Shown: positions 6,001 through 23,800 of the stretch, piece after piece | Numbering within the stretch: position 1 is the first letter of the stretch | Layout of the letters: each line of letters starts with the position of its first letter | Assembly: GCA_963676815.1 (NCBI GenBank) | Contig: OY781365.1 | Span: forward strand, 2,456,488-2,520,487 | DNA: 64,000 nt | From: an uncultured Draconibacterium sp. | Lineage (GTDB): Bacteria; Bacteroidota; Bacteroidia; Bacteroidales; Prolixibacteraceae | Direction of reading: 5' to 3' | The notes under the pieces: generated by a model | What the model saw: the letters and a program-made list of their open reading frames with translations, nothing else | What the model was told of the DNA's origin: nothing | Databases searched by the model: none | Program-made: the position numbers and the translations under genes

Positions 6001-9000
6001 AATGGAAACGGGTGTACTGCAGATAGTACGACCTTGAGTATTACCGAACACGATGTTTATGTAAATCCTGAACCCGTACCTTCGTTGACCGGCGTTGATA
6101 CAGCTTGTACCGGAACCGAACATATTTACACTTCAGATGCCGGAATGACAAATTATATCTGGACTGTTTCCGCAGGCGGAACTATTGTTTCAGGAGGTAC
6201 ATTTAACGATAACACAGCTACTATACGTTGGAACGCAGATGGTGCGCAATCAATAAGTGTAAATTATACCGATACTTCAGGATGTATTGCAACTGCTGAT
6301 TCTACTCTGGATGTGTGGGTGCATTTGTCGCCGGTTCCTGTAATAAATGGTCCCGGATTAATTTGTGCAGGATCTGCCAATGCAACTTACAGAACAGATC
6401 CGGGAATGACAAACTACAACTGGACAGTTTCGGCAGGAGGAACAATAACCGGTGGAGCAAACGATAGTATTGTTTATGTAACCTGGAATTCAATTGGAAA
6501 TCACACCATTAGTGTAGATTATACAAATGCGAACAACTGTAATGCAATTACGCCATCGGTTTTGGCGGTAGAAGCAGTTAATGAGGTTATACCAACAATT
6601 ACCGGTGTTCAAACGGTTTGCGAAGGTACAACCGGAAACTACACAACAGAATCAGGAATGTCGGATTACAACTGGTCGGTTATTGGGGGAACAATAACTG
6701 CCGGTGGCGATCCGTTCAGTAATTCTGTTACCATTCTATGGGATTCGGCTGGTGTTCAAACTGTAAGCGTTGACTATTTAAGTATTAATGGTTGTAATTC
6801 TATTGTTACCAATCATAGTGTAACTGTTGATCCAATGCCACATCCTTCCATAACCGGAGCCACAAGTGCATGTCTTGATACCATTGTTTATACGTACACA
6901 ACCGAGCCTGGAATGACCGATTACCAGTGGATTTATTCGGCAGGAGCGATTGTTATTGGAGGTGGAAGTTCTACCGACGACTACATTGAAATTCAGTGGG
7001 ATGCACTTGGCCCGCAAAGTGTAAATGTTAATTATACTAACCTTAACGGCTGCCGCGCAATTACTGCAAGTACACAAAATGTTGTGGTAAACGAGTTAAC
7101 GCCAGTAACCTGCCCGGGCGACACCACTTTTTGTGTGAATGCCGGTATTGTTAATTTGGTTGAGGGAACACCGGGCGGAGGGGTTTTTTCCGGGCCCGGA
7201 GTAAGCGGGAATACGTTTGACCCAATGGTGGCTGATGTTGGCTTGCATACAATAACTTACTCTTATACAAACGATAGTTCATGTGTTAGTTCATGTACTT
7301 TTCAAATACGAGTCGATCCGCAGCCGATAGTATTAGATCAATACCTTACAATTTGTAGCGAAAGCTCAGTAGATATTAATTTAAATCAATTGGTGCCCGA
7401 TGCAACATTTAGCTGGGTAGCTTATGATAATTCTTCAGGAACATCCGTTTCGGGATTCACTGACTGTGCCTCAGGATGCGATACAATGATTACTGATATA
7501 TTGGTTAATTCGAGTATTACAGAGCCCAGTTATAACATCGGAACGGCCGGAACTGTTGTATACGAAGTTACGGCATTACACAATGGTTGTGGCGGCACTT
7601 TTAATATTGTGGTTACCGTTCAGCCTTCAATTATTGAATTGGAACATTCGTGGAACTCCAATTTTGTTGAGGATTTTATTGAAGTTTGTGCCGGGGCTCA
7701 GGCCTTAAGCAGTAACGACCTTGAAATACTACATCCAACCAGAACCTGGGGATTTTTTAACAGTTACGGATTGCTAACCGATGGCGACTATTTTGATGAT
7801 GATAATTGGGGAGTACGGATTCTGTATGGTCAATCGGAAGAAGGGCCATGGGTGCAAGCTCCGCACGGAGAAGGACCTTTTGGCGATGGATGGAATGATT
7901 CGGAAGGTCCCTATCAATGGATTGTTGATCTGGCCATTAACGACCGTTTAGGTTACCACTACTTTATTGTAGAATTAACCGATCCGTATACCGGATGTAT
8001 AAAATATAGTAATCCGGCCATCTTAAATATTGTTTCATCATTACGCATTGAAGCCGGAGGACCTGACTTTGTTTGTACTTCATCATCTCCTTCTCCAATA
8101 ACTTTGGACGGTGCTTATGTTGGTGGTATAGCGTCAACTTCAACCGGTGGAACCTGGACTGCAAATGTGGCTGGAGGCAGTTTTTCGCAAAACTTCTCAA
8201 ATCCGGGGCTGGCAACTTATACTCCACCAGCCGATTTTGTTGGCGAAATAACCTTAACACTTACATCAAACGATCCTGATGGAAGCGGTGAGTGTGTTCC
8301 TTTAACAGATGAACGGATAATGAATGTGTTACCTCCCGGCAGTTTTGAAAGTTGTTTGGAACCGGCTACCTGGATAGAATCCGGCTCGCCGGGAAATAAT
8401 GGTTACCTTGATGATAACCAATCGCCATGCGCGATTAACATTGTAGGTAGCGATAATTTATCAGGTAATCCCGGATCATTTGGTATATCACATTGTGCTG
8501 GTGCCGGAACATTATCTTTCGACTGGTATTTTAAAGCACCCGTCAATAAGATTGTCTGGCACCAGGAAGATCAGCAGGTGGGGAGTAATAATGGATCGAG
8601 TAGCCGAATGTACGTGGCTCCACCGACAAATATTGAAGTTGGCGACTTAATAATTGTTACCATTCATGTTAACGATAACACAGGAACGATTAGCGATAAC
8701 GATGGTGAGTTTATTGAAATTAGGAGAGACACTTATTCTGGTGCAGTAACCCTGGCTTCATTTTATAAAATTGCAACATCTGCCGACGTAAGCAGAACCA
8801 CCGATTACAGGTTTAATCTTTCGAATGTGAGTAGTAACGATCGCATCTATTCGGTTCGAATCTCGGGTGCCGATCAAAACCAGGCAACCGTAATTGGCGA
8901 TAATGACGGAATTGCACAGTACCTTACTTATCCTGCACGAGATTACATGAATGCAACAATACCGGCAGTTTCGGTTACAAATGCCAATTCGATGCTGGTT

Positions 9001-12000
9001 TCTGCTCTTGCCATTAATATTAGTGGTAGTTCAGGCGATGTGGAATATATCAATTCTCCGTTGGGGAGTACCACAATGTTTTACGAAGATTACGAAACTA
9101 CAGCACGGGTTGCGCAAGAACTAATTTCATCGACAGGATCGGCAGGAACGCAAACGTTCTCATGGCCAAGTTATAACTCCCGCAACAGGTATAATATGTA
9201 TGTGGCGGCCCACTCTTTCATAATAAATCCGGCCATTCCCGATGTTGATGCGGCTAATTATATTATCGGAACAACTCCGGTAATGTTAGGAAATGTGAAT
9301 GGTGCATCGGGTAGTGTTTCTGTTCCGGTTTCTGGTGGAGAAAATATATCATTTGCCGTTTCAACCGATTTAAACACAGGTGGCCCGGGAGAACTGATTA
9401 TTTACAATCTTGATGTACCAAATGATCCACCTGTAGTATCCGGCGATACGCTAATTGAGTATGCTGAATGCCAGCCGGTCGGCTTTGATCCGGACACGGC
9501 ATTTACCGGCCCGACAGTATTCGATGACTGCGATACATTTAGCATACAAACCGGATACCCTACAACCACCGCTATAATTAGCAATGGGTGCGAAAACTCG
9601 CAAACCCGTACCTGGGTATATGTCGATGATTGCGGTTTGGAGTCGGAAACATTTACGCAGCGAATTATTTGGACAGTGATTGACACCATAACTTTATCGT
9701 GCCCGCCAAGCGATACGCTGGCATCCTGTTCAGACGTTGCCGATATTCAGGTTGCTTATGATGCATGGAAGGCCGGATTTTCTTATATAGGTGGATGCGA
9801 AACGGTATTTGATAACTTAAATGAGTTTCCGGTATTAACCGATTTAAGCTGTGGCGGGCAGCTTGATTTTACACTAATTGTTTACGATGCTTGCGGACAA
9901 GTTGATTCATGTACCTCGCATTTGGTTATTCAGGCTGCCGAGGATTTAGCTTTAAGCTGTCCGAACGATACGTTGTTACCAGCCTGCACCGATACCGCTG
10001 AAATACGTGTAGCCTATGAAGCCTGGATTGCGGGATTTTCATACGTGGGTGGTTGTTCAACAGTTACAACCAATATTGATTCAGTTCCTGAATTAACTGA
10101 TTTAAGTTGTGGTGGAGAAATTGAATTCAGGTATGTTGTTAACCTTGGGTCGCCAAGCTGTCCAAACAGTATTGATTGTTACCGTACTTTTACAGTGGAA
10201 GCTCCTGTGGATTTACATGTTAATGTGCCGGGTGATGCAACTCTGCCATTGTGTTCCGATACTGCGTCGATAAGGGCAGCCTATGATATCTGGGTTGCCG
10301 GGTTTACCACTACCGGAGGTTGCGATGTACAATCCAATATCGACTCGATACCCGAATTGCCCGACCTGACTTGTGGAGGCTCTGTTTCATTTGTATTCAG
10401 GGCATGGAATGGCGAGGGGAAATGTGTCGATTCAGCTGTCGACTCTTCATCTTTCACAGTAATGGACCCACCGCCACTAAGCATAACCTGTCCTCCTGAC
10501 CCGAATTTACCGGGTTGTTCAGGAGCACTGGCAATTACTGCTGCCTATAACAATTGGGTTGATGGATTCACGGCAAGTGGTGGTTGTGATTTGGTTACAA
10601 ATATTGATTCAATACCTCCACTTGGAGATCTGCTATGTAACGGACAATTGGTTTTTGAATTCATTGCCCGAAGCGGGGAAAATGTTTGTTCGACCGTCGA
10701 TACCTGTGTTGCAACTTTTACCATTGGAAATGCCGATACTCTTGCAATTACGTGTCCTGGCGATACGATTGTGGAAGGTTGTTCGGCCGCCGAAGTTCAA
10801 ACTGTTTTCGATAACTGGATCGCACAATTTGCATATACAGGCGGTTGTAACGTAAACGAATCCGACCTATCGATTTATACACCGCCGATTACCTGTGGAG
10901 GTGTGGTTGTGGTGAATTATATTGTTTCCGACGAATGTGAGCAGACGGACAGCTGTACAGCAACTTTTCAGGTTAATGCCCCGGAGTTGGTGATTTCAGT
11001 TCCGGAAGATACTTTATTAGATGCCTGCTCCGATCAGTTGGATGTTGATGCTGCCTTTGCCAGCTGGATTAGTCAGTTTGGGTATAGCGGTGGTTGTAAT
11101 GTGGTTGCTACGGCGGTTGATTCATTTACTTCGCCAAATATTTGCGGTGGAGAAATTGTTATTAATTATTCGGCAGCCGATGTTTGCGGTCAGGTGAAAA
11201 CCGGCGCAGCTTTTTTTGCCATCGATTTCCCGTTACTTGTAGAACTTAACCCTTCGTTTACTGTACCTGTAAATACCAGCGTGTATAGCGATGCATTATG
11301 TAATTACGATGCTGATCCTACAATTACAGGTTATCCAACCGATTTATATGACAACTGCACAGAAGATAGTTTGCATATTTCGTATAATGACAATGTTGTT
11401 GATGGCTCATGCGCAGGAGAATACATTATTTATCGCGATTGGACAGTTGTTGATAATTGCGGTAACGACACAACGCAACAACAGATTATAAATGTTCTTG
11501 ATACCATTCCTCCGGTAATTGTTTGTCCAAATGATACTTCGGAGTTTACCGATCCGAGTCAGTGTACCAAAACGGGCATGGACATGGGAACTGCAGCGGC
11601 CACTGATAATTGTACTCCCGAGGCATCAATAATAATAACCAACGATGCTCCGGTGCAGCTACCTGTTGGAACAACTACAGTAACCTGGACAGCTACCGAC
11701 GATTGTGGTAACGTTTCGTTCTGCACACAATTGGTAACTATTGTTGATACCATTCCACCAAATATCGATATAAACGGTTGTCAGGATGTGACGGAAACAG
11801 CTGCTCCTAATAACTGCTCGAAGGTTCCGGATACGATGCTCGATCCTGTTTATTCTGATGATTGCTGGCCAGTTGATTCGCTGGTGTTGACTTATTCAGT
11901 AAACGGAGCAACAACAGCAAGCGGAACAGGCTCTGCAGCAGTGGTCGAATACAATGTTGGCGTTTCATATGTTACTTATGTTGTCACCGATCCAGATGGT

Positions 12001-14544
12001 CTTCAGGATTCGTGTTCGTTTATAGTAACAATTGTTGATGTTACTCCTCCTGGAATTGACATTGGTGGTTGCGTTGATGTGAGCGATACAGCGGCGGCAA
12101 ACAACTGTTCAAAAGTTCCCGCTATAATTGCCGATCCAACTTATTCAGATAATTGCTGGCCTGTTGATTCGTTAACATTAACCTGGACAATGACCGGAGC
12201 CACCACAGGTACAGGCACCGGTTCTGTTGCTGGCGAAAGTTTTAATGTTGGATTAACTACCGTTCAGTATGTTGTTACCGATCCTGACGGAAACAGCGAT
12301 TCTTGTTCGTTTACTGTGCGTATTCTGGATATTACAGCTCCGGGAATTGATATTGGAGGTTGTGTTGATGTTAGCGGCACTATGGATGCAAACAATTGTT
12401 ATGCTATACCACCGGCAATTACTGATCCAACTTTTTCCGATGCTTGTTGGCCGGTGGATTCGCTGGCTTTGAGTTTCAGAATAGAAAACGGAGCATGGGA
12501 TACTACCGGAGTGGGATATGTTTCCGGACTTCAATTCCCGGTTGGAACGAATACGGTTTGGTACATAGTAACCGACCCTGATGGAAATGCTGACAGCTGT
12601 TCGTTTACCGTGGAAATGTTACGCGACGAGATTCCGTGGACAGCAATTACTTGTCCATCTGATCCAGCGCCGATAGTCCTTGGTTCAACCGAGTGTGAAA
12701 GGGCTATTTCTCTTGATCCTCCTGTTGTAAGCGACTATTGTGTTACGGCAACCTACACAATTACCAATGATTTTAACGGACTTTCTGTTATCTCGGATGA
12801 AATATTCCCTGTTGGTATTACGCAGGTTAACTGGACGATAAGCGATAATTCGGGCAACGATACCATTTGTACGGTTTATGTTGATATAAGCGGTGTTCAG
12901 TTGCCAACAATTGCCTGTCCATCTGATGTTGTTCAGCAATTAACAGCCGATCAGTGTGAAGCAATTCCTGTTAATATTCAGGAGCCAGATGTAGATGCTC
13001 CTTGCTGGCCCGACGATTCGCTGGCTATTAGTTATGTAATTACGGGTGCACTTGATTCTATCGGCGTTGGTTCTGTTTCTTCAATAGAGTTTCCGTTCGG
13101 TATTTCAACAGTAACTTATACGGTTACCGATCCTGACGGGAATACCGCTGACTGTGCATTTACAGTTTCAATGTCGCGTCCGAGTATTCCTTCGGCAGTT
13201 GTTAATTGTCCAACTACCTCAGTTACCGTTACTGTAAATCCGAACGAATGTGAGACTTTTGTCGATCTGGATCCACCAACTATTAGCGATCCTTGTTCAA
13301 CAGCAGTATATACAATAACCAACGACTATACGGGAACCAACGATGCCGATACGCTTTATCCAATTGGTATTACAACGGTTACATGGACCATTCGCGATAC
13401 TTTTGGGAACGAGGAATATTGTTTGGTGGATGTTGAAGTAATTGACTTGCTGCCAACCTTAACCTGTCCACCGGATACAGTATTACAGGCCGATTTTAAT
13501 CGGGCATATGCATCGGGTATTACCATTGATCTTCCTTATTTCGAAGACAACTGCGACTCTACGCTAACGTGGACAGTGAGCGGAGCAACCACGCTTTCAG
13601 AACTTGAAAATGATGTATTGGCAAATGGTATTAATGTGGTTCATTATCCCGATACATTTAACCTGGGAACTACTACCATCACCTACACTTTTGAAGACGG
13701 ACACGGAAATATCGTTGAGTGTAGTCATAACATTACTGTGCTTGGTGCACCTGATATTGAATGTCCGCCGGATACAACAATTTACCTCGATGGTTCGGAA
13801 GGTAACTGCGAAGCTACATTCGATCCGGGTGTGGCCGACCTGATACAGGGAACTCCGCCAATTACCTGGACTTATACCATAACTTTCCCCGATGGTTCGA
13901 CACAAACACATACGTATATAAAAGATGCGCCCGATCCGGAACCAAACCCGCTGGGCGTAATGGATTTCCCGCTTGGGGTAACTACTATTGAATGGAGGGC
14001 TGAAAATATTTCCGGATTCGATACCTGTTCGCACTGGATAGAAGTGATCGATACAATTCCTCCAACCTTTACAACAGCACCATACGAAAACTGTGTTGAC
14101 ATGTTGCACTGGGCCGTTTACGATCCTGCTAATGCGAACCCGGTATTTAACCATGTCGATCCGCTGGTAGAAAAATTCCCGGTTGATTACCGAACCATGT
14201 TTGCCGGCGATGAATACCTCGATCTGCTTACATTGGAAGATAACTGCTGCGACTCTACAGAAATGGCCATAAACTGGAGAATTGAATTTAGCGATACTCC
14301 AAATTCAGTAACAGGAGTTATGGAATCTCATCCGAATATTGAAGGAACAGGTCAACCTTCAACTTATACGCATCCGGTAACCGGATTGCCAACCGATATT
14401 TACCTGTGGGGCGATGGTGTGACCTTTACCACTGTGGTTCATCATATTTATTATTGGGTAACCGACTGTAACGGAAATACGACAGAGGAGGTAATGGAAG
14501 AAATTACCATTACACCACGACCACAAATTATTAAACAGAATTAA
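1..14544 (+). CDS. Giant secreted adhesin-like protein (HYR, Ig-like, SprB-like and PKD-like repeats), 5'-truncated by the window edge; no T9SS CTD
   Basis: The frame is open from base 1 (PAISNCPADINQT precedes the Met at 40), so the ORF is partial. It has HYR-type units (CP.D...DNC...FP.G.TT.TW...D..GN...CSF.VT), Ig units (ITTQPASQTDC), SprB-like repeats (SC.G.NDG.I.....GG.G.YE.SIDGG), 6 PKD-like repeats (P.ITG...VC.G...Y.T..GMT.Y.W), 6 CP.D..L..C...AY..W..GF...GGC repeats and 4 CWP.DSL repeats. It ends ITITPRPQIIKQN. Confidence 0.9.
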   Translation, partial: PAISNCPADINQTMSSVVCGDTVVFSEPVFTDNCDGIITATRTDGTGLNSGDVFPEGITTLTWHAVDAAGNDTTCSFDVTILSDGSGPDITCVGNQAECAPYNSTYLKTGTDWDAIATDNCPGVISLNYNLSGASSGTGSSLNNVQFSIGTTTVEWTATDAQGNSSNCSFEVIISEEPGFAQNPVDVSACLNGSATFTASAAGVPAPTYQWRFEGTDIPGETGATLIVNNIQAIDAGNYDVVASSSCGTAISTNAVLSVSSPPEITTQPASQTDCLGESVEFTVAAIGGETPYSYAWQMRPTSSDAWGDAAMVSNIVTTDDVMVVTNIGDSNNPDHAEYRVIVTDVCGNSDTSSVAAITVNTILNALVDTTTVCQDGAATFSVLTSGSVPVLYEWFLNSSPVSNNAVFSGTTTQTLTITNAQVSEGGTYSVRVTFNITQPNNNGAGATTCQSLLIDIGELIVDEGPDIVAGISSQTICPGNAIAQIDLSNANGTPGTTYSWTRDNTGVLTGMPDSGSGNTINGVLNSLTPGTMVTTTFEITALANGCPSATTVTVTVGDTTRPTPATCPTDIIVNTDAGLCDATVSYTVPAFDDDCDGLAIPGTLVEGFASGAQFPIGTTTVKYIYTDAAGNVSDTCSFDVTVADNEQPTAICKDVTVQLDATGVVSITPADIDNGSSDGCGLDSLRIDVSSFDCSDIGDNTVSLTAVDLYGNEATCAVTVTVQDTVKPVVACRDINAYLDVNGQVSITAAAIDNGSTDNCAIASLNLSATDFTCTDLGSNSVTLTATDDNGNSSTCNAEVNVLDTISPNAICRDITIQLNGSGSASITANDVNNGSSDNCGIDTMFISQYTFDCSETGLNLITLTVVDDNGNSSDCVATVTVEDIEKPVARCRDITIQLDANGLAAIVAADIDNGSTDNCGVPTLSVSPNSFNCTNLGANTVTLTATDGYGNDSTCQAVVTVSDDDYPVEITANVSQTTILCNGEPADITISVSGGVGALTYTFNGVSQPINTFSGIGAGTYNWSVTDPFGCGDTTGTFEVVEPEPLQALLTSLDASCSSGNDGEIRISASGGSNVFEFSIDGGASWESDTIFTGLSPGFYDVQMRDANVPTCSVVLDAALEIIILDADITLTDISCYGETDGEITLSNPDGGSGAYQFSINGGTTWEDFVSGSYTYINLMADTFDVWIRDANDLTCVIPLDTMLILTEPDSLYALVDSANITCFGANNGTISLLSSAGGTGGYEYSIDGGTNWSSNSNFAGLIPATYDVRMRDANGCEKILNAALILTEPSILTANIDSSNISCNGGNDGEIILSNPTGGYGSYEFSVDGGTNWQTDTAFLNLYAGTYDVRIRDISDPSCFIILNPTLVLTEPPAMNIAAQPTDITNCFASTVQFGVNINGGAGTITYEWQRMRPSESVFTTISAGPNVLNQDTDSLQVLNIGNADSPNGTQYRVVISDNCTVLTSNLVTLLVNEITDVTPDIEDTEICEGQNYSLQVATSGGIPVSYQWQIDSAGTWENLSNTTVVSGVNSDQLTIAGATPNLTGQYRVVVTFPSTSGDCDLSSESFIRNLTVYPLPVVDSTTDIVVCNGDIVSAINFTGTGTSYDWTNTDASIGLAASGTGDITSFTAVNSDTVPVNAEIVVTPRGLYCDGIADTFLITVNPTPEAIAPSGLVFCEAGPTDPYPLSGIPSNVVFDISGGASIGLADATDVSEISSFTPIVGTATITITPKLNGCTGTAVSFDILVVESPTATISGGDTVCQGGLAASLIFESATGRIVEATYTINGADTNTVVIPAYTPVPLPVPTNNSGVFEYELIQVAYISEPYCSNTDVKDTAQIVVIEPPVPTILGPDEICANIEGNVYTTEPGMTDYVWNVSSGATITAGGDLLSNTITITWDTPGSKNVSVRYTDGNLCSATISTIYPVTVNAVPVPTITGSANVCEGEVITYITQSGMTNYLWDISAGGTISAGGALTDNSVTVEWNGAGDQTVSVNYTNGNGCTADSTTLSITEHDVYVNPEPVPSLTGVDTACTGTEHIYTSDAGMTNYIWTVSAGGTIVSGGTFNDNTATIRWNADGAQSISVNYTDTSGCIATADSTLDVWVHLSPVPVINGPGLICAGSANATYRTDPGMTNYNWTVSAGGTITGGANDSIVYVTWNSIGNHTISVDYTNANNCNAITPSVLAVEAVNEVIPTITGVQTVCEGTTGNYTTESGMSDYNWSVIGGTITAGGDPFSNSVTILWDSAGVQTVSVDYLSINGCNSIVTNHSVTVDPMPHPSITGATSACLDTIVYTYTTEPGMTDYQWIYSAGAIVIGGGSSTDDYIEIQWDALGPQSVNVNYTNLNGCRAITASTQNVVVNELTPVTCPGDTTFCVNAGIVNLVEGTPGGGVFSGPGVSGNTFDPMVADVGLHTITYSYTNDSSCVSSCTFQIRVDPQPIVLDQYLTICSESSVDINLNQLVPDATFSWVAYDNSSGTSVSGFTDCASGCDTMITDILVNSSITEPSYNIGTAGTVVYEVTALHNGCGGTFNIVVTVQPSIIELEHSWNSNFVEDFIEVCAGAQALSSNDLEILHPTRTWGFFNSYGLLTDGDYFDDDNWGVRILYGQSEEGPWVQAPHGEGPFGDGWNDSEGPYQWIVDLAINDRLGYHYFIVELTDPYTGCIKYSNPAILNIVSSLRIEAGGPDFVCTSSSPSPITLDGAYVGGIASTSTGGTWTANVAGGSFSQNFSNPGLATYTPPADFVGEITLTLTSNDPDGSGECVPLTDERIMNVLPPGSFESCLEPATWIESGSPGNNGYLDDNQSPCAINIVGSDNLSGNPGSFGISHCAGAGTLSFDWYFKAPVNKIVWHQEDQQVGSNNGSSSRMYVAPPTNIEVGDLIIVTIHVNDNTGTISDNDGEFIEIRRDTYSGAVTLASFYKIATSADVSRTTDYRFNLSNVSSNDRIYSVRISGADQNQATVIGDNDGIAQYLTYPARDYMNATIPAVSVTNANSMLVSALAINISGSSGDVEYINSPLGSTTMFYEDYETTARVAQELISSTGSAGTQTFSWPSYNSRNRYNMYVAAHSFIINPAIPDVDAANYIIGTTPVMLGNVNGASGSVSVPVSGGENISFAVSTDLNTGGPGELIIYNLDVPNDPPVVSGDTLIEYAECQPVGFDPDTAFTGPTVFDDCDTFSIQTGYPTTTAIISNGCENSQTRTWVYVDDCGLESETFTQRIIWTVIDTITLSCPPSDTLASCSDVADIQVAYDAWKAGFSYIGGCETVFDNLNEFPVLTDLSCGGQLDFTLIVYDACGQVDSCTSHLVIQAAEDLALSCPNDTLLPACTDTAEIRVAYEAWIAGFSYVGGCSTVTTNIDSVPELTDLSCGGEIEFRYVVNLGSPSCPNSIDCYRTFTVEAPVDLHVNVPGDATLPLCSDTASIRAAYDIWVAGFTTTGGCDVQSNIDSIPELPDLTCGGSVSFVFRAWNGEGKCVDSAVDSSSFTVMDPPPLSITCPPDPNLPGCSGALAITAAYNNWVDGFTASGGCDLVTNIDSIPPLGDLLCNGQLVFEFIARSGENVCSTVDTCVATFTIGNADTLAITCPGDTIVEGCSAAEVQTVFDNWIAQFAYTGGCNVNESDLSIYTPPITCGGVVVVNYIVSDECEQTDSCTATFQVNAPELVISVPEDTLLDACSDQLDVDAAFASWISQFGYSGGCNVVATAVDSFTSPNICGGEIVINYSAADVCGQVKTGAAFFAIDFPLLVELNPSFTVPVNTSVYSDALCNYDADPTITGYPTDLYDNCTEDSLHISYNDNVVDGSCAGEYIIYRDWTVVDNCGNDTTQQQIINVLDTIPPVIVCPNDTSEFTDPSQCTKTGMDMGTAAATDNCTPEASIIITNDAPVQLPVGTTTVTWTATDDCGNVSFCTQLVTIVDTIPPNIDINGCQDVTETAAPNNCSKVPDTMLDPVYSDDCWPVDSLVLTYSVNGATTASGTGSAAVVEYNVGVSYVTYVVTDPDGLQDSCSFIVTIVDVTPPGIDIGGCVDVSDTAAANNCSKVPAIIADPTYSDNCWPVDSLTLTWTMTGATTGTGTGSVAGESFNVGLTTVQYVVTDPDGNSDSCSFTVRILDITAPGIDIGGCVDVSGTMDANNCYAIPPAITDPTFSDACWPVDSLALSFRIENGAWDTTGVGYVSGLQFPVGTNTVWYIVTDPDGNADSCSFTVEMLRDEIPWTAITCPSDPAPIVLGSTECERAISLDPPVVSDYCVTATYTITNDFNGLSVISDEIFPVGITQVNWTISDNSGNDTICTVYVDISGVQLPTIACPSDVVQQLTADQCEAIPVNIQEPDVDAPCWPDDSLAISYVITGALDSIGVGSVSSIEFPFGISTVTYTVTDPDGNTADCAFTVSMSRPSIPSAVVNCPTTSVTVTVNPNECETFVDLDPPTISDPCSTAVYTITNDYTGTNDADTLYPIGITTVTWTIRDTFGNEEYCLVDVEVIDLLPTLTCPPDTVLQADFNRAYASGITIDLPYFEDNCDSTLTWTVSGATTLSELENDVLANGINVVHYPDTFNLGTTTITYTFEDGHGNIVECSHNITVLGAPDIECPPDTTIYLDGSEGNCEATFDPGVADLIQGTPPITWTYTITFPDGSTQTHTYIKDAPDPEPNPLGVMDFPLGVTTIEWRAENISGFDTCSHWIEVIDTIPPTFTTAPYENCVDMLHWAVYDPANANPVFNHVDPLVEKFPVDYRTMFAGDEYLDLLTLEDNCCDSTEMAINWRIEFSDTPNSVTGVMESHPNIEGTGQPSTYTHPVTGLPTDIYLWGDGVTFTTVVHHIYYWVTDCNGNTTEEVMEEITITPRPQIIKQN

Positions 14545-14589
14545 GGGAATGAGACACGATATAGACATAGAAAGAAGTTGGAGGCAACT

Positions 14590-15054
14590 TCACCACCTCA
14601 CCGCTGTAAACGCGGTCCCCTCCGCCTGGAAGGCGGAGAAATTAGGGCCGGAGACTTCAATGCTATTGTCATCTCGACGAGGATACGAGGAGAGATCTGT
14701 AACAGTGGAGCAACAAAGTAACAGATTTCTCTCCGTCAGCCGATGGATCGAAATGACAGAGGCCATCACCGGAGCGACTTTCCCCACTTGGGGGGAAATG
14801 TCTGCAGGACAAAGGGGGTCGGTAAAAGTTAATTATAATAACTCTCACCACCTCACCGCTGTAAACGCGGTCCCCTCCTCCTGGAAGGCGGAGAAATTAG
14901 GGCCGGAGACTTCAATGCTATTGTCATCTCGACGAGGATACGAGGAGAGATCTGTAACAGTGGAGCAACAAAGTAACAGATTTCTCTCCGTCAGCCGACG
15001 GATCGAAATGAACGAGGCCATCACCGGAGCGACTTTCCCCACTTGGGGGGAAAT
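14590..15054. repeat. Direct duplication of a 210-bp composite palindromic unit (14590-14799 and 14845-15054, period 255)
   Basis: The two copies are near-identical, starting TCACCACCTCACCGCTGTAAACGCGGTCCCCTCC and ending TTTCCCCACTTGGGGGGAAAT. Each contains a TGTCATCTCGA...TCGAAATGA stem. Confidence 0.95.
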
Positions 15055-15080
15055 TTATCAGAAGATGCTAGTTGATACTT

Positions 15081-15200
15081 TACCCCCCGTATCGGCCACA
15101 CTCCGTCAAGCGGAGTTGGCGGCCTCAACTGTCCCCCTACGTGTAGGGGGACGAGTGGAGCCGGTGGCTTCGAAGAAGATCCGGTGGAAGTCGGGGGGTA
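15081..15200. repeat. Composite palindromic (REP-like) element
   Basis: Terminal inverted repeats TACCCCCCG (15081-15089) and CGGGGGGTA (15192-15200) enclose hairpins CTCCG-TCAAG-CGGAG and GTCCCCCTAC-GT-GTAGGGGGAC. Confidence 0.85.
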
Positions 15201-15370
15201 CGGAGAATTATATGAGAATGACAGAGGCCATCACCGGAGCCGGTGGAGATGGTGTTGAAGTAAAAACAAATAAAAACGCTCATTATTTCCAAAAGGAAAC
15301 CGTGAGCAAACGAGATAATAATTTAAGCCTGTTCTTCCTGATTTCACAACACGCATTGAAATGCGAAAAG

Positions 15371-15416
15371 TTCTCCCCCTTGGGGGAGATGTCCGCCAGC
15401 TGGCGGACAGAGGGGT
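15371..15416. repeat. REP-like double hairpin (CCCC/GGGG family)
   Basis: TTCTCCCCCTTGGGGGAGATGTCCGCCAGCTGGCGGACAGAGGGGT; same layout as 14779-14819, 15877-15935 and 17684-17724. Confidence 0.85.
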
Positions 15417-15517
15417 ATAGGTTAGTAGCTAACAAAAAAAAATCAAGTGCCTATGAAACATGACTAAAGCTTTAAATCTTTCTGCTGAACAGAGTAGGTG
15501 GAGAGTATGGTTCTGTA

Positions 15518-15714
15518 AGGCGACTGGTTTCCCGGTTGCCTGTGGCTACGGAGAAACGTGGTGTTTATTTTCTCTACAACAACAACATGTATTTAGGCGA
15601 TACAACCTATAAATACCACAATTCCCCGGAGCCCGGCCATCTGTATTAGGAAATCAGGGGAAGTGCCACTTGTGGCATACCCCCTTGATTAAGATCCTGA
15701 CCGCTAACTAGCGG
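15518..15714 (+). ncRNA. Candidate structured leader/ncRNA upstream of the 383-aa subunit gene
   Basis: Consecutive hairpins with G-U pairs: 15518-15541, 15558-15619, 15653-15689 and 15701-15714. Not similar to the surrounding repeat families; no known family recognised. Confidence 0.3.
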
Positions 15715-15876
15715 GTGAACAATAATGTTGATGAGCCCCTAACGATTTGACATTTTGAAACTAAGTTTAACTGAATTGAACGAAATAATAACCGATCAAT
15801 TCAAAAAAAGAAAAACACGTTCTGAAGTTTATTGAAAGGAGAATTGCCTGGAGCCTGAGAACCACCGGCCACATTT

Positions 15877-15935
15877 CTCCCCCTCGTGAGGGGGAGTACG
15901 CCGACCGAGCTATGCGAGCGTCGGTGGGAGGGGGT
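15877..15935. repeat. REP-like double hairpin (CCCC/GGGG family)
   Basis: CTCCCCCTC-GT-GAGGGGGAG followed by a CCGAC...GTCGG hairpin and GGGAGGGGGT. Confidence 0.8.
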
Positions 15936-16000
15936 AAACATGCCACACGTAATTTCACCTGATATAAACCAAGAACAGCTAAACATTAAAAATTTTAATT

Positions 16001-17152
16001 ATGAAAAAGCAAATTTTAATTCTAACACTTTTTGTAGCGGCTTTTTTAGTCGGAAACAATGCCTTTGGGCAAAGTGGTCTCGCTAGTGGACATGCAGACT
16101 ATGATTATTTAGATGGTGTACCTACTTACTGCCCAACAGCTCGACCTATTGATTGTGGGGCTGGAGGTGATGCATTAGCTCCATTGCCTGGTGTTTCGTA
16201 TCCTTATACTATTACTTCTCCTACGACAACAGGTAATGTTCATTGGTTTGTAGCAGACCTTACTGCAGATCCTACTATTATAGATGCCCAGGGGAATATT
16301 GCTGCGACTATTGAACCTGCGGATGGAAGCAGTCCTTATATCCTAACTGCCGATGGTGCCTACAATGATGTGACAACTCCTAATACTTCTAAGACTGTTA
16401 ATATTACATGGAAAGCATTTGATGGTCTCGCCAATACTGTAGTGCTGGTTGTGTACAATGTTGACGATGCAAATTGTACCGATAATATGGAAATTTACCG
16501 TATTATTCCTCAATACAACTTTACGCTTGATATTGCCAGTATAGCAGACGATGGTGTTAATGGTGCTGAAATTGATGAAGCCCCTGTTGAAGATTGTGTA
16601 AATCCAATTCAGAGTGCATCTTATGACGGTACAGATTTGACTGTAGATTACGGTACCGATTATGTTTTCTTTGCTGTAAACGCTGCAAACTGGCAACATT
16701 CATGGATGCCTGGTGATTTCTCAGTTACATCAGATTATGCAGGTAGTACTCCTGTTATTACTGGATGGGCATACCCTGCTGATGCCGCAACAACGGGTGC
16801 TTGGAATACTGTAGGAACTGATCCTGTGTTGGCAAGTGGTTATCCTGCAGGAGTTAGTGTTGATGGATTCGTTGCTGAAGCATGTATTATTGTGCGGGTT
16901 CAGGTTGACCATGGATCAACAATTGAAAATATTCTTGGCAATGAAACCATTACTTTAACTGTTAATGGTGATATGTACAATGCGGAAACTTTAACTTATG
17001 ATAATACTTATCCTGATTTAGAAGATGGTGGTGGTGCTGCTTGTCCTAGTGATCTTACATCAGACGCTACGGATTACATACTTACTCCGAGACCTGATAT
17101 TGACGAGAGTACTCCTACTCCATTTGAAACTAAAACACCTAGTGACGACTAG
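16001..17152 (+). CDS. Secreted Ig/PKD-like protein, putative major (shaft) filament subunit
   Basis: 383 aa with Sec signal MKKQILILTLFVAAFLVGNNAFG-Q, beta-rich sequence and paired Cys. It has a CTDNMEIY motif shared with the 18772 protein and a C-terminal YILTPRPDI tail. The CDS is clear; the function is inferred. Confidence 0.85.
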   Translation: MKKQILILTLFVAAFLVGNNAFGQSGLASGHADYDYLDGVPTYCPTARPIDCGAGGDALAPLPGVSYPYTITSPTTTGNVHWFVADLTADPTIIDAQGNIAATIEPADGSSPYILTADGAYNDVTTPNTSKTVNITWKAFDGLANTVVLVVYNVDDANCTDNMEIYRIIPQYNFTLDIASIADDGVNGAEIDEAPVEDCVNPIQSASYDGTDLTVDYGTDYVFFAVNAANWQHSWMPGDFSVTSDYAGSTPVITGWAYPADAATTGAWNTVGTDPVLASGYPAGVSVDGFVAEACIIVRVQVDHGSTIENILGNETITLTVNGDMYNAETLTYDNTYPDLEDGGGAACPSDLTSDATDYILTPRPDIDESTPTPFETKTPSDD

Positions 17153-17154
17153 TA

Positions 17155-17202
17155 GTTATGAATTTTGCTTTTTCATAACCTAAGATCCCGATTTTATCGG
17201 GA
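17155..17202 (+). other. Two hairpins immediately after the stop codon (possible mRNA-stabilising structures)
   Basis: GTTATGAA/TTCATAAC (17155-17179) and TCCCGAT-TTT-ATCGGGA (17186-17202); no U-tract follows. Confidence 0.55.
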
Positions 17203-17210
17203 CAAGATAT

Positions 17211-17342
17211 AGCGCAGAGCGCAAGGGGCAGAGCGCATGGAGCAGCGACTCCGTGCCCTGCTCTTCGCCCTGGGCGATGGATGAAGGACTGAGGTTATGA
17301 AGAAGAAAGCAAAGGATTAAAGATTATTGATTAACGATTAAA
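17211..17342. repeat. Degenerate 7-bp tandem arrays
   Basis: AGCGCAG AGCGCAA GGGGCAG AGCGCAT GGAGCAG with a roughly complementary arm, then GATTAAA GATTATT GATTAAC GATTAAA (17315-17342). Confidence 0.75.
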
Positions 17343-17449
17343 ATGAATGAACCTACCGCCGAATGGCGGAGCACTTTGGAGAGAAGCCCGAAAAAGGGCA
17401 TACGAAAGAAACGGCGTTTCATAAACGAGCTTGTCATTACAATCTTTCT

Positions 17450-17554
17450 TGTCATCTCGAAGGAGGTACAGCTTGTCCCGAACTTTCGGGAACTGAGAGA
17501 TCTGTAACAGCGGAGCAAAGGACTAACAGATTCCTCTCTTCGTTCGGAATGACA
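17450..17554. repeat. TGTCAT...ATGACA palindromic element (third copy of the 14667-14758 family)
   Basis: Outer stem TGTCATCTCGA/TCGGAATGACA and inner stem AGAGATCTGT/ACAGATT. It carries an extra TCCCGAA-C-TTTCGGGA hairpin absent from the other copies. Confidence 0.85.
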
Positions 17555-17683
17555 ATCAATCGGAGAAACGCAACTCATTAAAAATTTAAAATAAGATGAA
17601 ATGTGAACAATAATATACACAACATCTGTAAAGGCAAAGCACCGCCTGGAGAGTCGCGAGTACAGTCTATTGTTCAGAACGTC

Positions 17684-17757
17684 TTTCCCCTCCTGGGGGG
17701 AAATGTCCGAAGGACAAAGGGGGTAACTTGCAACTTGCAGCTTGCAACTTGCAGCTT
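17684..17757. repeat. CCCC/GGGG double hairpin followed by a 7-bp array
   Basis: TTTCCCCTCCTGGGGGGAAATGTCCGAAGGACAAAGGGGGT, then AACTTGC AACTTGC AGCTTGC AACTTGC AGCTT. Confidence 0.85.
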
Positions 17758-17862
17758 CTTCAACGGCACGCTATTGCTAAATATGCGCGACGGGCCACGT
17801 GGCCGTGCACCGGCAACTCGGTTTGCTATGGGCTACGGGCTTGTCACGCTTATTCAAAAATC

Positions 17863-17950
17863 CTCTGTGAGCCTCTGTGTGCACTCTGCGAGCTCTGCGG
17901 TTAAGAAATTTTTACCACAGAGAAAACAGAGAAGCCACAGAGAGCACAGG
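17863..17950. repeat. Inverted pair of ~9-bp arrays
   Basis: The left arm (CTCTGTG/CTCTGCG x4) is roughly complementary to the right arm (CACAGAG/AACAGAG x4). Confidence 0.8.
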
Positions 17951-18070
17951 GTGATTTATACCCATAATCCAACAACGGCATTCCGCACGAACTGCACGGA
18001 AGATGGACGCTTGCAGGAGGAAAAGTTGGAAAGGATGAAGGATGATCGATTAAGTATTAATAATGGCAAA

Positions 18071-18660
18071 AGTGCGCAGGCCTTCCCCTTTAGGGGCCAG
18101 GGGTAGCGCAGGAAAATGAAGAAAAAGTGAATGAGTAATGGTGTGAATGAGCTGACAAAAAACAAAAGACTACTGTGTCCTATGTACCTATGTGGTTCAA
18201 AATACCTGGAGAAACTTAGTGGGTACTTTGAGTCCTTTGTGGTAAAATTTTAAACACAAAGTTGCACGAAGAAGGCACAAAGTCACACAAAGACAAAAAA
18301 GGAGAGTGCGCAGGCCTTCCCCTTTAGGGGCCAGGGGTAGTGCAGGAAAATGAAGAAATGGTGTATGAGTAATGGTGTGAATGAGCTGACAAAAAACAAA
18401 AGGCTACTGTGGCCTATGTGCCTATGTGGTTCAAAATACCTGGAGAAACTTAGTGAGTCCTTTGTGGTAAAATTTTAAACACAAAGTTGCACGAAGAAGG
18501 CACAAAGTCACACAAAGACAAAAAAGGAGAGTGCGCAGGCCTTCCCCTTTAGGGGCCAGGGGTAGCGCAGGAAAATGAAGAAATGGTGTATGAGTAATGG
18601 AGTGAATGAGCTAACAAAAAACAAAAGGCTACTGTGGCCTATGTGCCTATGTGGTTCAAA
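18071..18660. repeat. Tandem repeat, ~2.6 copies of a 225-234 bp composite unit
   Basis: Units start AGTGCGCAGGCCTTCCCCTTTAGGGGCCAGGGGTAG at 18071, 18305 and 18530. The period differs (234 vs 225) because of a 9-bp indel (GGTACTTTG). Confidence 0.95.
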
Positions 18661-18771
18661 AACTTGTAGCTTGAGTCTTGCGACTTGTAGCTTATAAAAA
18701 TGAAAGACAAACAAAAGAAAAAATAAAGACTTGAAGCTTGAAGCTTGCAACTTGAGACTTGTAGCTAAAAT

Positions 18772-19485
18772 ATGGTCCAACTGAAAAAACATATCATCCA
18801 CTTTACCCTGGCAATTTTGCTGGCGGTGCTGGCTGTGGCTAATGCTGCGGCACAGACGCCTATTACCGTGCATGAGTGTGATACCATGACTTTCAGTGTA
18901 AGCAGTCGGCCGAATATTCCGGAAACGCATTTTGTTTGGGATGTTTTTCCGGCCTCTAATCAACCGGTAGAATTACTCGATGAAACATTGGCACTGGATC
19001 GGGCCACAACTTTTGTGGGAAGTCAGTATGCAGGACGAACGGTGCAGGTTACCGGGCTTGCTCCCGGCGAATACTATGTAAGTATACATGTTTGGGATGA
19101 AATAACATGTACAGATAATATAGAAATGTTTGTAATGACAGTGCTGGAATCGGAATTAGAGATGGACATTTATGCCGACGAAGTATGTATTGGCGAGCCT
19201 ACCAATGTATATATCCGCTTTACGGGCCGTGGCCCTTACGAGGTGCAATACACCATTGGCGACCAGGTAACACCAAGTGTGGTAAACGTGATGGGTGGAG
19301 TTCAGGATCCGGAGCTGGTAATTCCGGTTACCGACCCGCTGCCTGTGGGCGAAACTACCTTTTGGATAATACGTGTTGAGGACAATTGTAAAGCTTACGA
19401 GTACGATGTGGATGAACGACCGGGTACGGGAATTCTGATTTATCCAAAACCAAGCCAGTCGCAGATTTACCTAAAAGACGATTAG
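18772..19485 (+). CDS. Small secreted two-domain Ig/PKD-like protein, putative adaptor subunit
   Basis: 237 aa with a Sec signal ending ANAAA-Q, a CTDNIEMF motif, an FTGRGPYEVQY second domain and a C-terminal ILIYPKPSQSQIYLKDD tail. Confidence 0.85.
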   Translation: MVQLKKHIIHFTLAILLAVLAVANAAAQTPITVHECDTMTFSVSSRPNIPETHFVWDVFPASNQPVELLDETLALDRATTFVGSQYAGRTVQVTGLAPGEYYVSIHVWDEITCTDNIEMFVMTVLESELEMDIYADEVCIGEPTNVYIRFTGRGPYEVQYTIGDQVTPSVVNVMGGVQDPELVIPVTDPLPVGETTFWIIRVEDNCKAYEYDVDERPGTGILIYPKPSQSQIYLKDD

Positions 19486-19587: not shown

Positions 19588-19653
19588 AAAGGAAGAACTA
19601 GTAAATGAGTTATTGAGGAAACACTTAGCGTCTTAGCGCCTTAGCGAGAAAAT

Positions 19654-20411
19654 AGAATGATGAATGAAGATTAACGAATTGCGGTTTTAGAAGGAATGAA
19701 AAAATGCTTAAATGCATTAATGCTAAAATGATAAAAACTTAGTGTCTTTGAGTCTTCGTGTTGAAAAAGACTGAACACAAAGTCGCAAAGCCACAAAGAA
19801 GAAGAAAGAATGACGAATGTAGATTAACGAATTGCGGTTTTAGAAGGAATTAAAGAATGCTTAAATGCATTAATGTTAAAATGATAAAAACTTAGTGTCT
19901 TTGAGTCTTCGTGTTGAAAAAGACTGAACACAAAGTCGCAAAGCCACAAAGAAGAAGAAAGAATGACGAATGAAGATTAACGAATTACGGTTGTAGAAGG
20001 AATGAAAGAATGCTTAAATGCATTAATGCTAAAATGATAAAAACTTAGTGTCTTTGAGTCTTCGTGTTGAAAAAGACTGAACACAAAGTCGCAAAGCCAC
20101 AAAGAAGAAGAAAGAATGATGAATGAAGATTAACGATTTACGGTTGTAGAAGGAATTAAAGAATGCTTAAATGCATTAATGTTAAAATGCTTAAATAGAA
20201 AAAACTTAGTGTCTTTGAGTCTTCGTGTTGAAAAAGACTGAACACAAAGTCGCAAAGCCACAAAGAAGAAGAAAGAATGATGAATGAAGATTAACGATTT
20301 ACGGTTGTAGAAGGAATTAAAGAATGCTTAAATGCATTAATGTTAAAATGCTTAAATAGAAAAAACTTAGTGTCTTTGAGTCTTCGTGTTGAAAAAGACT
20401 GAACACAAAGT
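19654..20411. repeat. Tandem repeat, ~4.9 copies of a 153/161-bp unit
   Basis: Units start at 19654, 19807, 19960, 20113 and 20274. The longer variant carries one extra 8-bp ATGCTTAA-type subunit. All contain CTTAGTGTCTTTGAGTCTTCGTGTTGAAAAAGACTGAACACAAAGT. Confidence 0.95.
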
Positions 20412-20827: not shown

Positions 20828-20894
20828 GATGCAAAACGATATAGATCTAAAAACAAACGTGTAGCTTGCAACTAACAGCTTGCAGCTAAAAAAC

Positions 20895-23800
20895 ATGCAA
20901 AGGCTAAAATACATACTGATGATTATAGTGCTGGCAGTTACCGCCCGGGTAGCTGAGGGGCAAACCTATGTCATCGACTCTGTATGTGTGGGAGCCGAAC
21001 GCACCTACCGCCTCGATGGTGAAGAGGGTTCGTACTACGAATGGGATATTTACAGCATGCCCGACTCCTCGGTGTTTGCCGACTCGGTTCCTTACACCGA
21101 TTTCAGAGATATTGGCCGGCCAACTGCCAACGATACCACCTGGGGAAGCCAGATTCAACAGCTGTGGGATGTGGTTGGCGAGTTTAATATTGAGGTTACC
21201 CACTGGTCGCTGCATGGTTGCGATACCCTGGAAGTAGGACAGATAAAGGTATTTCCGCCACCCGAAGCCATTGCCGGCCCTAACGATGTAATCTGCGAAT
21301 TTGCCGATATTCAGCTAACCGGCGATACCGCCTGGAACCACAGCAGCCTGTTGTGGACAACTACCGGCGACGGTACCTTTAGCGACGATATGGCCCTGCA
21401 TCCGATATACTACCTTGGCCCTGCCGACAGTGCAGCCAGTAGTGTAACACTGGTGCTCACCTCGTATGGTTTAGCCGAAAACGAAACCTGTATACCCGCA
21501 GTTGACAGTGTAAGCTTTGAGTTTAGTTCGCCGGATATTGTGCTTGCCGGAGCCGATCCGCTGTGTTACAACGAAAACACAGGTTATGTAAGCGCCAACG
21601 TTGTCGGTGGACTGGCACCGTTAATCTACAGCTGGCAGGGACCCGATGGTTTCTCGGCCGGAAACGTTGATAGTATACCCGAATTGGGAGCAGGAATGTA
21701 CGTGCTTACCGTAACCGATGCCAACGGTTGTGTGGATATCGACTCGATACAACTGTTTGATCCTCCGCAGTTGCTGGCAAACATTGATAATGTGAGTCAG
21801 GTTAGCTGTTATGGTTATGCTGATGGTTCAATTGCGGCATCGGCAAGTGGTGGAACCGGTACGCTTACCTATAACTGGACCAGCTTACTGGGTGCAACAT
21901 ATACCGGCGATTCCATCTATAATTTACCGGCCGACACGTATTACCTTACCGTTACCGACGAAAACGGATGTACCTACCTCGATACAGTGCTATTGCCCGA
22001 GCCCGAACTGCTTTTAGTGGATGTTACGGCCGACGATACCATTTTATGCGAGGGCGAAGTGGTAACGCTTCACGGAAATCCGGAGGGCGGAACAGGAGAA
22101 CTAACGCAGAGATGGACCGGAAACGGATCGGTATTCCTCAGCTCGGTTAACGACAGCGTAATAACTTTTGAAGGCGCACCTGTTGGGCGTTATGTATTTA
22201 CTTACACCATTACCGACGAGGCACTTTGCGAGGCATCCGATTCGATTGTGCTGAATGTTTACCCGCCATCTTTTAGCTTCGATAGTTTGGAAGTTTGTGC
22301 CGGAGCGGCTCCTTTCCCCTGGAATGGCCTGATGGTTACCAGCGATGCCGACCGCGATTATGTTGATACGCTGGTGGGAATGAACCAGTGGGGTTGCGAC
22401 TCCATTCTTTCGCTGGCGGTAAAAGTGCTCTTCCCCGAAGTGTACGATACTACAATCTATATCTGTGAAAACGAGGCACCTTTCCAGCCTTACGGAAACA
22501 TTACCGTTTTACCCGACCGCGACAGCATTTACCTCGACACGGTTCGTTATGCTGATTCGGGCTGCGACTCTCTGCTGATTACCATTAATGTATTCTCTAA
22601 TCCGATAACCGATACCTTGTTGTATGCCGAACTTTGTGCGGGTGCCGATCCTTATCAATGGAATAACCGCTGGATACAAACCGATTACAGTGAGATCTAT
22701 CTCGATACTTTGGTGAATCAGTTTGGTTGCGATTCCTTGCTAACCTACGATGTTACCATTATTCCACCCGATACAACTTATGTATTTGATACACTTTGTC
22801 AGGATACCGAACCCTACGTTTGGAATACCATTACAATAGAAACTGTTTTCGACAGTACCTACCAGGTTACGCTTCAAAATCAGTATTTATGCGACTCTGT
22901 TGTTGAATTAAGTGTTCATGTTCTTCCGGTAACCGATACTTTGCTTGACTTAACTTATTGTGCCGGTCCGGGATTTATTACATTGAATAACAGGGATATA
23001 ATTTTTGATGAATCGCGGATATACCTGGATACATTGTATGGAGCGAACCAGTTTGGTTGCGACTCTTTGCTGACTTATGATGTTACCATTCTTCCTCCGG
23101 ATACCACAACAATTGATACCACCATTTGTGAAGGAGAACCGGCCTTTGTATGGGGAGTAAATACCACTCATCTGGTGGATGCTTATACCGATAGTATTTA
23201 TACCGACATATTGCAAAACCAATTTGGTTGCGACTCGATTGTTTATTTAGATGTTGAGATTCTGCGCCCTGTTGTAATTACCGATACTATTGAAGTATGT
23301 GCCAACGAACCTGCTTTTACATGGCACTCGTTTACTATTGCTACTGATGTTGACAGTATTTATGCCGATACACTTTATTACGACGCCGGTTGCGACTCCC
23401 TGCGACTGGAGTTAACCTTGATTTCGAATCCGGTTACCGATACCTTGCTCGACTCAATAATTTGTGAGGGAAGTCCGGTGTTTGCATGGAATAGCGTTAA
23501 CATACAAACTGATTTTAGCCAGGTGTATTACGACACACTGGTTGGGGCAAACCAGTTTGGCTGCGACTCGTTCCTGGTATACGATGTTACTATTGTTCCT
23601 GCAATAAAAGATACCATTCCTGCTGTATTTTGTTTTGGCGAACCGATTGCCAACTGGTACGGTCAAAGCATATCATCAGAAACTGATAGCACATACATTC
23701 ATAACGTTCCCGGCCCGGGAGGCTGCGATACGCTGTTGTATTACGATGTAAGTATTTTGCCGGTAACCGATTCAACCTTATACCTGACGCTTTGTGTTGG

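Follow-up and report, generated by a model that had tools for sequence, protein, structure and literature searches.

How proteins without a recognisable sorting domain reach the cell surface and stay there is the question raised by a surface-adhesin locus of an uncultured Draconibacterium sp. The locus lies in a 64-kb stretch of DNA (the window; positions 2,456,488 to 2,520,487 of contig OY781365.1) within a single-contig genome of 6.24 Mb. The nearest protein matches came from Draconibacterium, Maribellus and other Prolixibacteraceae. T9SS (type IX secretion system) cargo is defined by its C-terminal domains (CTDs). At this locus, one CTD protein (giant2) and a PorP/SprF anchor stand alongside up to three CTD-less secreted proteins, namely p383, p237 and giant1, an adhesin of about 6830 aa (Table 1). 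Only giant2, of these four secreted proteins, carried a known secretion or anchoring domain. Its C-terminus matched PF13585 with 62.2 bits (cut-off 27) and, as a borderline hit, TIGR04131 with 34.5 (cut-off 35). The C-terminal pieces of giant1, p383 and p237 gave no match to TIGR04183, TIGR04131, PF13585 or PF18962, even at E up to 10. All three ended in the same short tail motif, which is possibly a docking tag.

The tails of giant1, p383 and p237 followed the pattern φxφxP[RK]P with a brief hydrophobic stub behind it, where φ is a hydrophobic residue. A last beta-strand led into P-[RK]-P, and the stub was located 1-6 residues from the free C-terminus. The tails include a QIIKQN-containing segment, SQSQIYLKDD and TPTPFETKTPSDD. 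The repeats of the PKD_6 block in giant1 are linked via φxφ…PxPxφxG…C junctions, and the original prediction had noted that the three free C-termini stop just after an equivalent segment. All quoted sequences were present, the C-termini ITITPRPQIIKQN, YILTPRPDIDESTPTPFETKTPSDD and ILIYPKPSQSQIYLKDD were recovered, and each tail proved to be conserved in orthologues. The genome was scanned for [ILVFYMT]x[ILVFYMT]xP[RK]P in the last ~26 residues of its 6536 open reading frames (ORFs) of at least 120 aa. Four ORFs matched, and three of them were the consecutive genes giant1, p383 and p237. The fourth match was a 121-aa ORF that is probably no gene. The expectation from the motif density was about 5.7e-4 per ORF; three adjacent genes among four matches genome-wide are therefore not due to chance. 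The middle residue was always basic in the tails, whereas it was R or K in only 14% of the internal φxφxPxP junctions in the large proteins of this genome.

The tails were also strongly conserved. For p237, 79 homologues were collected, of which 75 finished with P.Px(3-5)IY and 3-5 further residues. In an alignment of 24 sequences with identities down to 45%, I223, P225, P227, I232 and Y233 were invariant. Homologues of p383 (at least 248) mostly had 1-5 aa beyond the tail lysine. R364 and P365 were invariant and F375 and K378 at least 90% conserved among 108 p383 sequences. The PFETK segment of the p383 tail reached a mean column identity of 0.78, compared with 0.57-0.60 for the folded p383 domains. 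Among the giant1-type clusters, 142 of the 150 best ended in …[IV]T[IV]xPRPxφφK followed by 1-4 aa. Measured by alignment columns, the tails are thus conserved as much as, or more than, the folded domains. The terminal domains that precede them had no detectable homology to one another; only the last ~22 residues of giant1, p383 and p237 could be weakly aligned. PDB sequence searches with all three families gave no match, and p383 and p237 matched no Pfam or NCBIfam family. Foldseek searches returned only generic tandem immunoglobulin (Ig)-like matches for p237 and weak, generic Ig-like matches for p383, among them CfaB and LpfD at template modelling scores of 0.2-0.3.

The giant1 ORF starts ~5.95 kb left of the window with an N-terminal hydrophobic, signal-like segment. 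Its repeats comprised HYR, PKD_6, Ig_3, I-set and SprB domains, and no T9SS CTD was present. According to sequence comparison, the last ~125 aa of giant1 constitute an undescribed C-terminal domain family. The profile of this domain retrieved 502 representative clusters, 311 of them at E<1e-10, and no match in Pfam, NCBIfam or the PDB. The domain was nearly always located at the extreme C-terminus of its carriers, which in these clusters measured about 1000-6200 aa. Across the loci, the body of giant1 varied from 1000 to 7800 aa, with changing domain sets upstream of the constant terminus. Where a public name was given, the carriers were called HYR or PKD-like domain-containing proteins. The unannotated domain sits on hundreds of very different giant proteins. 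Within the taxonomic family, 24 of the 81 genomes had it, with 1-3 copies each; within the order, 7 of 201 did. Neither this profile nor the p383 profile had a match in any of 300 genomes sampled from across the phylum.

At their N-termini, p383, p237 and giant2 resemble one another. Profile comparison linked the first domain (D1) of p383 with p237 D1 (92%, E 6e-7), the giant2 N-domain with p237 D1 (93%) and the giant2 N-domain with the PKD_6 repeats of giant1 (87%, E 3.7e-6). Direct comparisons of p237 with PKD_6, p383 with PKD_6 and p383 with giant2 were not significant, and the link of the p383 N-domain to PKD_6 is transitive, through p237 D1. These profiles indicate that each of the three proteins begins with a related PKD-like N-domain. 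Profiles supported a p237/p383-type N-domain for the proteins of the window, for giant2 orthologues in A5 and for the CTD proteins of loci L015, L017 and L018; in the other loci it was assigned by sequence reading. The mature proteins start with Q-TPITVHEC (p237) and Q-TYVIDSVC (giant2). This start, 8 residues before a conserved Cys, corresponds to the start of a PKD_6 repeat after its PxP linker. In the alignment to PKD_6, QTYV of giant2 fell on strand-A positions, and p383 orthologues showed an xRPφxC motif at their N-termini. The earlier description of mature N-termini beginning near the Cys needs correcting in so far as it implied a lack of strand A. The signal peptides of p383, p237 and giant2 ended in AFG, AAA and AEG, each followed by Gln, with no lipobox Cys. 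The mature N-termini at 16070, 18853 and 20961 are all Gln after a signal peptidase I (SPase I) site, which fits the pyroglutamate 'Q-rule' usual in Bacteroidota.

The region belongs to a conserved surface-adhesin locus that is usually present as a single copy and occurs in Prolixibacteraceae and a few more families of their order; no paralogues were present in this genome. Its general gene order is tailed giant, tailed p383-like gene, optional tailed p237-like gene, CTD protein and PorP/SprF, with one or two p383-type copies. Synteny was kept in Maribellus and in a metagenomic relative, and outside the family in six more genomes of the order. The distribution was patchy and restricted to the order. 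PorP/SprF was always part of the locus. Here the gene sits upstream of the giant1 ORF, 110 nt away; most orthologous loci have it downstream of the CTD gene, and L013 has one at each end. Secreted proteins of the locus had a tail or a CTD, never both, in the window, L001, L002, L013-L018, two G544 cassettes and G569. L015, L017 and L018 had no separate p237; their p237-like N-domain was part of a longer protein with additional domains and a CHU_C CTD. Where the tail would be, L015 and L017 had an ordinary inter-domain junction (VNPSPEFK…, IFPLPHLEAVPSYGPFC) leading into these additional domains. The genomes G544 and G569 contained a tandem-duplicated p383-like gene, repeated cassettes and one more tailed giant in convergent orientation. 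Cassettes in tandem, two in number (giant, p383-like, p237-like-CTD, PorP/SprF), were observed in L020-L022 (G544:C1:2655001-2715000) and in L023, and the same stretches held two adjacent p383-like paralogues and the extra convergent tailed giant. These tandem cassettes suggest a modular expansion of the system.

According to the original prediction, the cluster is like a single Ig chain that was divided at its domain junctions and whose strand A comes in trans. The picture of a divided Ig chain is partly supported, because the downstream proteins start PKD-like, the upstream proteins end in a tail, and a tail or a CTD was found in every variant. The CTD-less proteins do end like junctions, the N-domains of the three downstream proteins are related, and the p237-like protein runs through the tail position in L015 and L017. 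The supply of strand A in trans was not supported, as detailed below.

As a tentative reading, the tails would be tags, recognised in trans or used for docking, by which the proteins assemble on the anchored CTD protein; its probability is put clearly below even. One tail idiom with a basic residue occurs on three not detectably homologous terminal domains at this locus only, which argues for a common or cognate reader in trans rather than three separate solutions in cis. The p237 tail, conserved yet not placed in the structural model, was counted on the same side. Each CTD-less subunit would dock via its tail onto the next subunit. The likeliest docking target would be the PKD-like N-domain of that subunit, bound by edge-strand addition, and the tail would not replace a missing strand A. 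The resulting fibre would run from giant1 through p383 (one or two copies) and p237 to the CTD protein, with the type-B CTD protein and PorP/SprF fixing it to the cell. The role of distal adhesin would fall to the polymorphic giant, whose terminal domain is constant.

Several observations weigh against docking in trans. The AlphaFold2 (AF2) model of p383 (108 sequences, predicted local distance difference test score (pLDDT) 90, predicted template modelling score 0.85) contained a PKD-like D1 and, after it, a large sandwich as second domain (D2). Its tail was ordered, with a pLDDT of 87-90, and strand 377-379 was docked on p383 itself; D1 strand B (66-70) and D2 strand 212-216 are the candidates for its pairing partner. 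Mutual information with average product correction, calculated from the same 108 sequences, was noisy and gave a weak, possibly gap-driven coupling of the tail to V215 in D2 strand 212-216. The model of p237 (24 sequences, pLDDT 75) consisted of two Ig-like domains with strand A in cis at residues 31-34 and a last strand at 218-224. Tail residues 228-237 were not placed (pLDDT 41), and this low value may reflect only the shallow alignment of 24 sequences. The N-domains appear to have their own strand-A residues and no obvious vacant slot. Furthermore, the extra convergent giant in G544 and G569 has a tail but no matching N-domain. The route of the CTD-less proteins across the outer membrane is left without explanation by the docking reading.

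The first alternative, possible but rather doubtful, is that each tail simply completes the terminal domain to which it belongs, for instance as an additional edge or latch strand following strand G. The likeness to junctions would then stem from the common idiom of G-strand, PxP and next strand in Ig arrays, and assembly would use other surfaces. The placement of the p383 tail in cis, the coupling hint to its own strand 212-216 and the position of the giant1 tail at the end of a well-conserved 125-aa domain all agree with such a capping strand. The occurrence of the same tail with its conserved basic residue on three not detectably homologous domains at one locus does not, nor does the unplaced p237 tail. 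In giant1, just 6 residues follow PRP, and an ordinary hairpin returning to the domain would need more. The equivalent segment of L015 and L017 links two domains and supplies the first strand of the second.

A further-reaching form of the docking idea, considered unlikely, is a pilus-like, non-covalent heteromeric surface fibre on the T9SS, in which CTD-less Ig-chain subunits are joined head-to-tail by their C-terminal tails. Giant1 would be the tip adhesin with a 125-aa docking domain, one or two p383 would form the shaft, and p237 would be the adaptor. The P[RK]P…φφ tail would be inserted into or onto the next PKD-like N-domain, and export and anchoring of the last subunit would depend on its type-B CTD and PorP/SprF. 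If true, this would be an assembly by C-terminal strands that needs no chaperone, usher or sortase and neither lipidation nor proteolytic priming, and the CTD-less proteins would be co-exported through the T9SS ('hitch-hiking'). A literature search on T9SS piggy-back export returned nothing relevant.

Alternatively, the C-terminus could be a new export or sorting signal, in giant1 the whole 125-aa domain, that is read by the PorP/SprF of the locus or by the T9SS. The P[RK]P…φφK tail would bring the CTD-less proteins to the surface. This was judged less likely again. It explains equally well why the loci inspected have a tail or a CTD but never both. The strictly terminal position of the tail and the constant presence of PorP/SprF, here directly upstream of giant1, would fit it too. 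In type-A CTDs, the extreme C-terminal residues are needed for secretion, and this was counted in its favour. However, the three C-termini had no similarity to type-A or type-B CTDs, and p383 and p237 have no CTD-sized domain in common. That giant1 alone is without the shared N-domain would remain unexplained.

Strict donor-strand complementation, with N-domains devoid of strand A and the slot filled by the tail of the preceding protein, is very improbable. The tails do align with the linker and strand A of PKD-like junctions, stopping just before the Cys position. Whether the N-domains are complete sandwiches was judged from the secondary structure of the AF2 models and gave a divided result: strand A was present in p237, and DSSP assigned none to p383 D1, while the C-terminal strand 377-379 pairs within the p383 model. 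AF2 is known to self-complement donor-strand proteins. On the other side stand the full strand-A segments of the mature N-termini, the xRPφxC motif in the p383 orthologues and the cis strand A of p237. No chaperone, usher, lipoprotein signal or pro-peptide was found in the cluster ORFs examined, the chaperone and usher families having been covered by general scans of these ORFs and the whole genome not having been scanned for PF00577 or PF00345. The supply of strand A in trans to an incomplete N-domain, the core of the original prediction, is not supported, because the mature N-termini keep the strand-A residues, strand A of p237 is modelled in cis and the p383 tail docks in cis.

Least probable of all, and disfavoured by the conservation of the tails, are functionless remnants of neutral gene fission or fusion: fused and split forms of p237 both exist, but invariant tail residues persist in hundreds of clusters and in different families of the order, the stop codon follows at a fixed distance and the basic residue is conserved. 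Three further candidates were rejected. A SpyTag-like isopeptide link between the tail Lys and the conserved CTDNxE of the N-domains was discarded, as the Lys is missing in distant orthologues (IYRY, GFLPI, PRPIIYDNY). Vestigial CHU_C starts were dismissed since no resemblance was found, and a known T9SS CTD since the searches were negative.

Among the closest characterised systems is the sprC-sprD-sprB-sprF gliding-adhesin operon of Flavobacterium johnsoniae, in which SprB has a type-B CTD and is anchored by the PorP-like SprF. Both loci encode, next to PorP/SprF and together with accessory genes, a giant adhesin that is built of repeats and has a type-B (CHU_C) CTD, and SprB repeats occur here in both giants. 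In contrast to the Flavobacterium operon, the present locus has a second, larger giant without a CTD and the P[RK]P tail on all CTD-less members. Its accessory proteins also had no detectable relatives outside the order, as judged from the empty phylum-wide searches with the p383 and giant1 domain profiles. A PorP/SprF-linked type-B-CTD adhesin locus is of a known kind; new here are the undescribed C-terminal domain family and the shared tail signature.

Type V pili (FimA/Mfa1) belong to the same phylum and share Ig-like subunits, an operon logic of tip, shaft and anchor, and joining by a C-terminal strand, which is only proposed here. The type V pilus component Mfa5 is T9SS-dependent. In type V pilins, which are lipoproteins, an Arg-protease cuts off the N-terminal strand and so opens the groove, whereas the proteins of this locus have SPase I sites, a mature Gln and no lipobox, and appear to keep strand A; their Foldseek matches were of a generic Ig kind. 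With chaperone-usher pili, the concept of an incomplete Ig fold completed by the strand of the next subunit is shared, and weak Foldseek matches to CfaB and LpfD were obtained. Their donor strand is N-terminal, however, their acceptor is without strand G, and chaperone and usher are required; neither feature was seen here. The giant1 domain is similar to T9SS CTDs (TIGR04183, TIGR04131/CHU_C) in its size of ~125 aa, strictly C-terminal position, variable passengers and T9SS locus. It differs in having no sequence similarity to them and in ending with PRPxφφK, and p383 and p237 share only the tail. The short C-terminal strand also recalls the 'dock, lock and latch' of MSCRAMM adhesins and split CnaB2, and the modelled cis docking of the p383 tail is latch-like. 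Those systems are Gram-positive and sortase-anchored; no isopeptide triad was evident here, and not all distant orthologues had the tail Lys.

Should the tails act in docking or sorting, this would explain how CTD-less giant adhesins reach the Bacteroidota surface and stay on it. The tails would also provide a simple sequence signature for the annotation of subunits and a small pair of peptide and domain that is directly testable.

Table 1. Features of the adhesin locus. Positions refer to the window unless marked as amino acids (aa) or genome coordinates.
Feature	Position	Strand	Description
PorP/SprF gene	genome C1:2449449-2450426		~6-7 kb left of window; PF11751, E 1.9e-63
giant1	1..14544	+	3' part of secreted adhesin, whole ORF ~6830 aa
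Six-repeat PKD_6 (PF19408) block of giant1	5554..7095	+	
PKD_6 junction VTVNAVPVPTITGSANVCEG	5785-5844		inside six-repeat block; quoted in the original prediction
giant1 C-terminal domain	14152..14541	+	~125 aa, HYR-like; GTGQPSTY...DCNGN...ITITPRPQIIKQN
giant1 tail ITITPRPQIIKQN	14503..14541 (stop to 14544)	+	
p383	16001..17152	+	secreted, 383 aa, 23-aa signal peptide, mature N-terminal Gln
p383 domains	aa ~44-170 (D1), then D2		PKD-like N-domain (D1), large beta-sandwich (D2)
p383 tail YILTPRPDIDESTPTPFETKTPSDD	17075..17149 (stop to 17152)	+	
p237	18772..19485	+	secreted, 237 aa, mature N-terminal Gln at 18853
p237 Ig-like domains	aa 28-125 (D1), aa 126-224 (D2)		
p237 last strand and tail ILIYPKPSQSQIYLKDD	19432..19482 (stop to 19485)	+	
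giant2	20880..29288	+	2802-aa adhesin: SprB, Big_9, cadherin-like domains
PKD-like N-domain of mature giant2	20961..21272	+	QTYVIDSVCVGAERTY...
giant2 CHU_C / type-B T9SS sorting domain	28980-29285	+	C-terminal

Public gene calls for p383 and p237 homologues often run 60-140 aa upstream into conserved non-coding DNA, giving recurrent pseudo-peptides such as ...KGKGPPG... (over-extended calls: P0092, P0095, P0099, P0103, P0108, P0111, P0180, P0041 and P0048). Database homologues of ~500 aa and ~300 aa had been considered as fusions and were rejected as N-terminal over-extensions of this kind. A non-coding block at 15400-15700, 300-600 nt upstream of p383, surpassed the proteins in conservation between genera. 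This block showed 77% identity over 307 nt with L002 and 69% with L001, and its invariant cores include GTGCCTATGAAACATGACTAA and CTACAACAACAA. RNAalifold with three sequences predicted 76 pairs, of which 9 had compensatory changes. The block is a candidate structured leader or non-coding RNA, judging from the alignment; Rfam had no match in it or in the intergenic gaps. Past the p383 stop codon, the stretches 17154-17648 and 17765-18025 were also conserved and non-coding, with 69-74% identity to the same position in L002 and L001.

The three intergenic gaps of 1.4-1.6 kb each were filled with tandem and hairpin repeats (14590-15054, 17995-18661 and 19647-20411). The tandem units were 255 nt x2, about 225-234 nt x3 and 153 nt x5, accompanied by short G+C hairpin units, some of which had dispersed, REP-like (repetitive extragenic palindrome) copies in the genome. 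ORFs across the gaps, such as 14549-15463, look spurious. Following giant2, a 738-aa ORF at 29522-31738 had a CarboxypepD_reg domain and a TonB Plug/SusC signature (residues 394-639), and no beta-barrel part was present. The ORF was missing at the corresponding position of L002 and may be a truncated SusC-like gene.

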